Shown in pieces: positions 63,649-64,000 of a stretch of DNA of 64,000 bases. Each line of letters opens with the position of its first letter. Within the stretch, counting starts at the first letter, position 1. A model generated the notes under the pieces. It ran no database searches. It had not been told where the DNA came from and worked only from the letters and a program-made list of their open reading frames with translations. This DNA comes from Escherichia coli (GTDB lineage Bacteria > Pseudomonadota > Gammaproteobacteria > Enterobacterales > Enterobacteriaceae), in assembly GCF_003019035.1 (NCBI RefSeq), contig NZ_CP027447.1, one strand, 5' to 3'. The position numbers were made by a program, and so were the translations under genes.

Positions 63649-64000
63649 TCAAAAATTAGGTGAGTAACGGACCGGGGACATAGCTCCTTTTTTTCTTAAT
63701 TCATCTGGTATTTTTTTTCCAAGATAAAGATTTGCTATTTCAGGTGGGGCTTCTCGGCCTTCAAAACCATAGCGAGAACTTTGTGTTGCCTCAAAGTCAG
63801 GATCCTCGTCCCAGTATTTCATCGTAGGGAAATTTTCACGTGTTGATTTGAGCCATTTATCAGCAATGAAAACCCCCCGAACGATTCCCCTTACAGTAGC
63901 AAGAATAACTTCTGCTTGGCTGGCGCGAGAGACATTAATGCGCCAGCTAAATCGAACCGCATCATAAAGCTCTGAATCCTTTGCACTTCTGTTAACGGAA
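63649..64000 (-). CDS. Hypothetical protein, C-terminal 116 codons; start beyond window
   Basis: Open frame on minus strand from window edge to TGA at 63649-63651 (...[69 protein letters not shown]); absent from ORF track because it has no start codon in the window. Confidence 0.4.

Follow-up and report, generated by a model that had tools for sequence, protein, structure and literature searches.

The open frame running off the end of an Escherichia coli prophage sequence is very probably the 3′ part of the PD-T4-3/CMoRE modified-cytosine restriction gene

We have analysed a stretch of Escherichia coli DNA of 64,000 nucleotides (contig NZ_CP027447.1 of assembly GCF_003019035.1; this whole stretch is called the window below), which ends inside an SfV/SfI/SfII-like myovirus prophage. 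The prophage is roughly 40 kb long and sits at thrW, with proA, the tRNA gene, a 55-bp att core and the tyrosine integrase gene lying in this order (Table 1). The gene discussed here is found at the attR-proximal end of this thrW prophage, beyond the tail fibres, in keeping with the suggestion in the initial annotation that it may belong to the cargo end of the element. Window positions 52000–61200 are 97–98% identical to the tail modules of the Shigella phages SfI, SfII and SfV, and 97% identical, with gaps, to the corresponding part of SfIV. The att core recurs in a related complete chromosome (locus L001, see below) at 16300–16354, about 3.35 kb past the equivalent of the window's right edge, where it adjoins a LysR-gene fragment and paoD. 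In the Shigella phages, the equivalent position is filled by the gtr serotype-conversion genes.

Past the tail modules, tail-fibre and tail-fibre-assembly ORFs are present in both orientations between two 25-nt inverted repeats, which are 88% complementary, lie 1792 nt apart and are presumed to be the crossover sites of the pinE serine DNA invertase. The first repeat is located inside the tail-fibre ORF 60850–61491, and inversion would therefore swap the C-terminal end of this ORF; other alleles or orientations of the segment are found in relatives.

The pinE gene is followed by a hairpin and then by an open frame on the opposite strand, which had been noticed as a convergent partner of the invertase gene that leaves the right edge of the window. 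The translation agrees with this: the minus-strand frame contains 116 sense codons from 63999 to 63652 with no internal stop and ends in a TGA codon, and when the 348 coding bases were shuffled as mononucleotides, the edge frame remained open in only 13 of 20,000 shuffles. The ORF list holds just a 57-aa piece of it (63649..63822), counted from an internal Met (Met201 in the complete protein); with the ORF cut-off at its default of 60 aa, no piece of the frame would be listed at all. The final base of the window, 64000, still belongs to codon 141 as its third position, and the share of the window in the gene is the 3′ 45% of its 774 nt.

Table 1. Positions of the features discussed, in the window and in related loci (L numbers)
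Feature	Sequence	Position	Strand	Remarks
proA	Window	25190-26443		
thrW, tRNA-Thr(CGU)	Window	26558-26633		ARAGORN
att core, 55 bp	Window	26588-26642		
Tyrosine integrase	Window	26648-27811	-	ORF list
Invertible tail-fibre segment	Window	61134..62975	.	25-nt inverted repeats 61134-61158/62951-62975
pinE serine DNA invertase	Window	63037..63591	+	184 aa from RefSeq start, WP_000904981.1 (identical sequence)
Hairpin	Window	63591..63629	.	Arms 63591-63603/63617-63629, 13 nt each, 12/13 complementary; 13-nt loop
3′ part of PD-T4-3/CMoRE gene (very probable)	Window	63649..64000	-	Codons 142-257 + TGA (63649-63651)
Retron Ec67-family RT-Toprim, 611 aa	L001	14135-15970	+	Divergent from CMoRE, 711 nt away
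DUF6602 gene	L002	4553-5896		Slot past pinE hairpin
Hairpins in L003	L003	3998-4040 and 5026-5046		
Dcm methyltransferase + type II restriction enzyme	L006	6825-9501		Alongside CMoRE
DUF2335 and small hypothetical genes	L008-L010	~4113-5178		Also in slot
Avs2	L012	78-4532		Slot past pinE hairpin

The hairpin had been described as shared with the invertase, and an inverted repeat is indeed found between the two stop codons. It begins with the final base of the stop codon of pinE (63589–63591) and ends 19 nt before the CMoRE stop, a placement that makes it common to the two convergent genes. In its 71-nt context, the plus strand folds with −26.9 kcal/mol (z −4.97, equalled by none of 200 shuffles) and the minus strand with −20.9 kcal/mol (z −3.19), and past this strong stem the tails on both strands are U-rich only, falling short of a U-run (UUUAUGCUUAU on the plus strand and UUUCAUUUAU on the minus strand). 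This hairpin is probably a bidirectional terminator of the pinE and CMoRE transcripts. It was not called in a strict terminator scan because its loop is longer than the 8 nt allowed there. A second, slightly diverged copy lies across the CMoRE gene in L001 (13612–13650), in the same orientation as the first copy (12592–12630), and is followed on the minus strand by a clean UUUUU, so that it looks like a terminator insulating the CMoRE gene from the right.

Two further likenesses of the hairpin have been checked. The outer stem (AAACCG/CGGTTT) is reminiscent of AAACC..GGTTT, which forms the core of the inverted repeats at 61134 and 62951, but the reading as a Pin crossover site was rejected, since the flanking half-site bases differ and the similarity extends over 5–6 nt only. 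In an Rfam search, the 3′-terminal hairpin of CssrB was found on the plus strand at L001 12570–12626 (window 63569–63625) with 32 bits against a gathering score of 76 (E 5.7e-4); a copy of the pinE–CMoRE hairpin may form the end of this Shigella chromosome-encoded sRNA. Across the extended locus, Rfam gave nothing at the gathering score and no msr or retron RNA.

Three complete E. coli chromosomes (NZ_AP027886.1, NZ_CP178438.1 and NZ_AP045789.1; loci L001, L004 and L005) are 100% identical to the final 1001 bases of the window, and hundreds more match at 99% or above. Each of the three keeps the frame open for 141 more codons up to an ATG, which bears out the earlier explanation that it was missing from the ORF track because its start lies outside the window. 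A stop without a start just upstream was looked for in the same three genomes, each 100% identical over window positions 63000–64000, and was absent. They each carry one full-length 774-nt gene for the 257-aa protein WP_000355484.1, named "LEM-3-like GIY-YIG domain-containing protein" in RefSeq. The sequence past 64000 is taken from these relatives, with identity to L001 unbroken from window position 62736 on (about the last 1.26 kb); across the last 25 kb of the window, the best complete-genome match is 97.3%. The above findings support the view that the edge frame is a real gene with its start outside the window.

Searches with the full protein, its missing part being supplied by a 100%-identical genome, gave a name to this gene. 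The PADLOC profile PD-T4-3 (PDLC04031) matched residues 1–256 along profile positions 1–255 of 256 (E 2.4e-140, 464 bits), and PHROG 5356 matched over the full length (E 2e-143). Pfam family PF22945 (LEM-3-like GIY-YIG) covered residues 28–110 with 54.2 bits (cut-off 27), the general GIY-YIG family PF01541 scored 13.9 bits, under its cut-off of 22.6, and no family was returned by an NCBIfam search with the full protein. Among the structures in the PDB, the CMoRE enzyme of E. coli O157:H7 (9U75/9U8D) is identical at 253 of 257 positions (E 3.7e-172), and the CMoRE enzyme of APEC O1 (9U7U/9U7Z) matches the full protein with E 1.1e-150. Even the window fragment is recognized when taken alone: 114 of its 116 residues are identical to residues 147–262 of 9U75/9U8D (E 1.5e-73), and it matches 9U7U with a number of substitutions (E 3.6e-56). 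The fragment alone hit no family in the Pfam search, as expected for part of a C-terminal sensor domain without described homologues.

The functional residues are also in place. The window holds amino acids 142–257, which make up most of the C-terminal domain sensing 5hmC and 5ghmC, with the GIY-YIG domain and the linker lying outside. [quoted passage not shown] The acidic autoinhibitory loop reads DDDE at residues 52–55, R80, V92 and L96 of the interface are retained, and Y127 is present 15 codons past the window edge. The unit of approximately 1 kb, in which two hairpins flank the gene, is met again with varied neighbours on both sides, as a single-component system does.

[quoted passage not shown] PD-T4-3 was first found in strain ECOR68 and is named in the figures, not in the main text, of that report (Vassallo et al. 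2022, PMC9519451); the new name was given with the enzymes from E. coli O157:H7 and APEC O1 (Liu et al., Nat Commun 2026, PMC12923530).

Since the window ends at codon 142, the start codon and the catalytic half lie outside it, and the frame could in principle be a truncated remnant or pseudogene in the source genome, its 5′ half lost or interrupted just past the edge. The exact genome of the window is absent from the complete-genome collection (best match 97.3% over the last 25 kb), an IS1 element lies a few kb off in two of the identical loci, and some records do hold gene fragments only, such as UMNF18 with 27% of the CMoRE gene. Such fragments are rare, though: at least 80% of the gene is present in 827 of the 842 matching E. 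coli records (98%), and just 15 fall below 80%, which makes the remnant reading unlikely. The 352 edge bases are also 100% identical to the three genomes with an intact gene, and the visible part shows no decay, with 116 codons free of stops and 114 of 116 residues identical to those of the active enzyme. We thus consider truncation to be very unlikely, and infer that the CMoRE gene is intact in the source genome. The gene as such is common, being present in 822 of 5426 E. coli genomes (about 15% of complete genomes).

The CMoRE gene is presumably expressed from its own promoter within the approximately 190 nt between the ATG and the upstream terminator hairpin. By eye, a weak candidate promoter (TTGTGA-17-TAATAT, 8 of 12 matches) can be seen about 35 nt upstream of the ATG; a sigma-70 consensus scan of the minus strand upstream of the gene called none, and no Shine-Dalgarno-like sequence is evident ahead of the ATG.

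The activity of the 98%-identical enzyme has been characterized. When CMoRE is cloned with its native promoter, the plating of T2, T4 and T6 goes down by about five orders of magnitude, and the cells survive a high multiplicity of infection, indicating a direct rather than an abortive defence (PMC12923530). Purified CMoRE breaks down T-even DNA, and also PCR products made with 5hmC or glucosyl-5hmC, leaves DNA with ordinary cytosine or 5mC uncut and does not touch the host genome; correspondingly, T4(C) escapes the restriction and T4(hmC) does not (PMC12923530). Cleavage occurs at CN11/N9G, leaves 2-nt 3′ overhangs and requires two modified cytosines, with no strict sequence specificity on T4 DNA (PMC12923530). 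In the crystal structures, the N-terminal GIY-YIG domain has an extra tyrosine (GIYxY-YIG, that is Y17, Y19 and Y31), and its active site is covered by a 15-residue acidic loop; mutating the four acidic residues of this loop makes the enzyme cut ordinary DNA and turns it toxic (PMC12923530). [quoted passage not shown] Two other studies lend independent support: in the clinical strain NILS69, a native host, deletion of PD-T4-3 led to sensitivity towards Tevenvirinae phages (bioRxiv 10.1101/2024.12.20.629700), and a homologue from Capnocytophaga with 48% identity cleaves T4 DNA, spares T4-GT7 DNA and, when highly concentrated, attacks Mu DNA too (PMC12366544).

Judging from its sequence, the present allele is likely to work as the 98%-identical O157:H7 enzyme does. 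The C-terminal domain would bind 5-hydroxymethyl-cytosine or glucosyl-5hmC in DNA, and the protein would act as a tetramer (a dimer of dimers) that needs two modified cytosines approximately 21 bp apart (CN11/N9G). The cut between the two modified cytosines would then be made by the GIY-YIG domain at the N-terminus, leaving 2-nt 3′ overhangs, while the DDDE loop (residues 52–55) over the active site would keep ordinary and 5mC DNA uncut. Incoming genomes of the T2/T4/T6 type would thereby be degraded directly without killing the host, and host and prophage would be spared because both carry ordinary cytosine.

The gene travels as a portable cassette of approximately 1 kb, bracketed by the two direct hairpin copies. 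When L001 12560–14140 was compared across E. coli, homology started either at the query start (where pin is present) or at query position 31–33, which are the first bases of hairpin 1, and it usually stopped at query 1057–1073, inside hairpin 2. In strain EH10-18-47 (L002), the same prophage occupies the same chromosomal site, but pin is followed by one hybrid hairpin (4030–4075) without the CMoRE gene, and then by the sequence that succeeds hairpin 2 in L001, which represents an "empty site". In PSJ-23 (L003), the unit is found in a lambdoid prophage, with a cro-like regulator on one side and a Dcm methyltransferase/type II enzyme pair on the other; its right junction lies inside the hairpin loop (GTATGC/GTTAATT, the slash marking the junction), and the same junction is seen in ETEC1717 (L006). 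The cassette has also been found beside chromosomal genes. The GC content decreases from the prophage body (51.3%) through pinE (49.6%) and CMoRE (43.5%) to the retron reverse transcriptase gene next to it in some genomes (35.3%), a stepwise drop that fits successive foreign acquisitions.

The above order of probable terminator, promoter region, gene and probable terminator is typical of a moron, and the simplest reading is that cassettes are exchanged through recombination within the shared terminator sequence. It is also conceivable, if improbable and called for by none of the observations, that the hairpin is a favoured point of exchange, as an attC-like or structure-specific recombination site for the insertion, duplication and loss of defence cassettes of approximately 1 kb; bearing on such a site-specific exchange, Avs2, the DUF6602 gene and the small hypothetical genes each begin right after the pinE hairpin. 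If true, SfV-like prophages and others would have a cassette-swapping hotspot with a defined junction at their pin-proximal end.

The mobility of the cassette raises the question of whether CMoRE could itself be a free-standing GIY-YIG homing endonuclease, spreading its own cassette of approximately 1 kb through cleavage of empty hairpin sites. The GIY-YIG fold is typical of homing endonucleases, the gene moves as a discrete unit with ends in a repeated hairpin and a known empty site, homologues with 38–45% identity in jumbo phages are annotated as "putative homing nuclease", and PHROG 314 (homing endonuclease) gave a weak match (E 0.002). The biochemistry speaks against it, in that the 98%-identical protein spares ordinary and 5mC DNA and the host genome and shows no strict specificity on T4 DNA (PMC12923530), and so do the breakpoints of the cassette, which vary (query 1057, 1060, 1073 and 1130) as in homologous recombination rather than falling at a defined cut site. 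With the jumbo-phage names being uncurated annotations, the chance of CMoRE being a homing endonuclease is slim indeed, and it is best regarded as a restriction enzyme.

The slot after the pinE hairpin is used by other genes as well. In STK39-3-E, the best genome over the last 25 kb of the window, homology stops at the hairpin (window position 63628) and Avs2 (AVAST type 2) comes next, and a DUF6602 gene, a DUF2335 gene and small hypothetical genes take the slot in other loci (Table 1). Small convergent genes of no assigned function come after the same pin end and hairpin in a different prophage family, located at yfhH. The slot thus looks like a prophage defence hotspot; our literature search found no description of an "invertase defence hotspot". 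Small clusters of prophage-borne systems have been reported for P2-like, Mu-like and lambdoid prophages (Vassallo et al., PMC9519451). The pinE-hairpin junction could help to locate further candidate defence genes.

In L001, L004 and L005, CMoRE is followed by a retron Ec67-family RT-Toprim gene, as identified by NF038237 (742 bits, cut-off 450) and also by the PADLOC RT-Toprim I-C profile. Ahead of it there is a perfect 12-nt inverted repeat (GGTTTATGGGCA/TGCCCATAAACC, L001 13983–13994/14104–14115, 109 nt apart), which ends 20 nt before the RT start, the expected place of the retron a2/a1 repeats around msr-msd; no retron RNA was reported by Rfam at this repeat. Separate effectors are common among retrons, and the RT-Toprim gene is a divergent close neighbour in all three genomes identical to the window's end, but the idea that CMoRE is an accessory or effector of this retron, the two forming one defence unit, is hardly credible and was rejected on co-occurrence, since at most 8 genomes carry the cassette with the retron-side flank (at least 80% of L001 12560–14140) against 822 with the gene; moreover, the cassette also lies beside the Dcm/type II pair or chromosomal genes, a terminator-like hairpin separates the CMoRE and retron units, RT-Toprim I-C retrons are listed by PADLOC as single-gene systems, and cloned CMoRE defends alone (PMC12923530).

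With the assignment to CMoRE, an unnamed partial ORF becomes a named defence gene of understood mechanism, and the right end of the prophage is marked as a slot for defence genes. The host strain is predicted to be resistant to T-even phages with hmC DNA, a trait relevant to the host range in phage therapy. The protein, its structure, its mechanism and its association with prophages are all already published, and the additions made here are modest: the hairpin-bounded anatomy of the cassette and the range of defence genes that alternate after pinE are mildly new.

The closest known system is the O157:H7 CMoRE itself, a single-gene system of 257 amino acids with the same motif, acidic loop, interface residues and sensor domain, from which the present allele differs by four substitutions (T51A, E55D, Q169K and N197H, the residue of the present allele being given first and that of O157:H7 last). 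T51A and E55D sit within or beside the autoinhibitory loop, which is DDDD in the O157:H7 enzyme and DDDE in both the APEC O1 enzyme and the present allele. In O157:H7 Sakai, the CMoRE gene likewise adjoins pinE, in prophage Sp1, and its far-side neighbour varies between strains.

The jumbo-phage homologues (Serratia phages Moabite and 2050HW, Pseudomonas phage OBP and Klebsiella phage N1M2) share the two-domain architecture over 97–99% of the length. In contrast to the prophage-borne gene, they are encoded by virulent phages, and their function, like their homing-nuclease annotation, is predicted only. Such full-length homologues (records ON287376.1, MK994515.1, JN627160.1 and MN642089.1) are known from jumbo phages of Serratia, Pectobacterium, Pantoea, Pseudomonas and Klebsiella, and they might act in the competition against phages with modified cytosine. 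Among the isolated phages in the collection, no CMoRE homologue was found at 60% protein identity or above.

The same logic of a prophage moron directed against the modified-cytosine DNA of phages is seen in McrA (EcoKMcrA) of the K-12 cryptic prophage e14. There (L007 2186–3680), mcrA lies immediately after pinE and is co-directional with it, and the pinE hairpin was looked for after pinE and is absent. McrA, another type IV modification-dependent restriction enzyme, is an HNH nuclease unrelated to CMoRE in sequence, and it targets 5mC and 5hmC, as compared with 5hmC and glucosyl-5hmC for CMoRE. The type IV enzymes of the PvuRts1I/AbaSI family and GmrSD are likewise modification-dependent, act on the hmC or glucosyl-hmC DNA of T-even phages and keep sensing and cleavage in separate domains. 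In the PvuRts1I family, the cut also falls between two modified cytosines at a set spacing (about CN11–13/N9–10G), which is very like the CN11/N9G of CMoRE. [quoted passage not shown]
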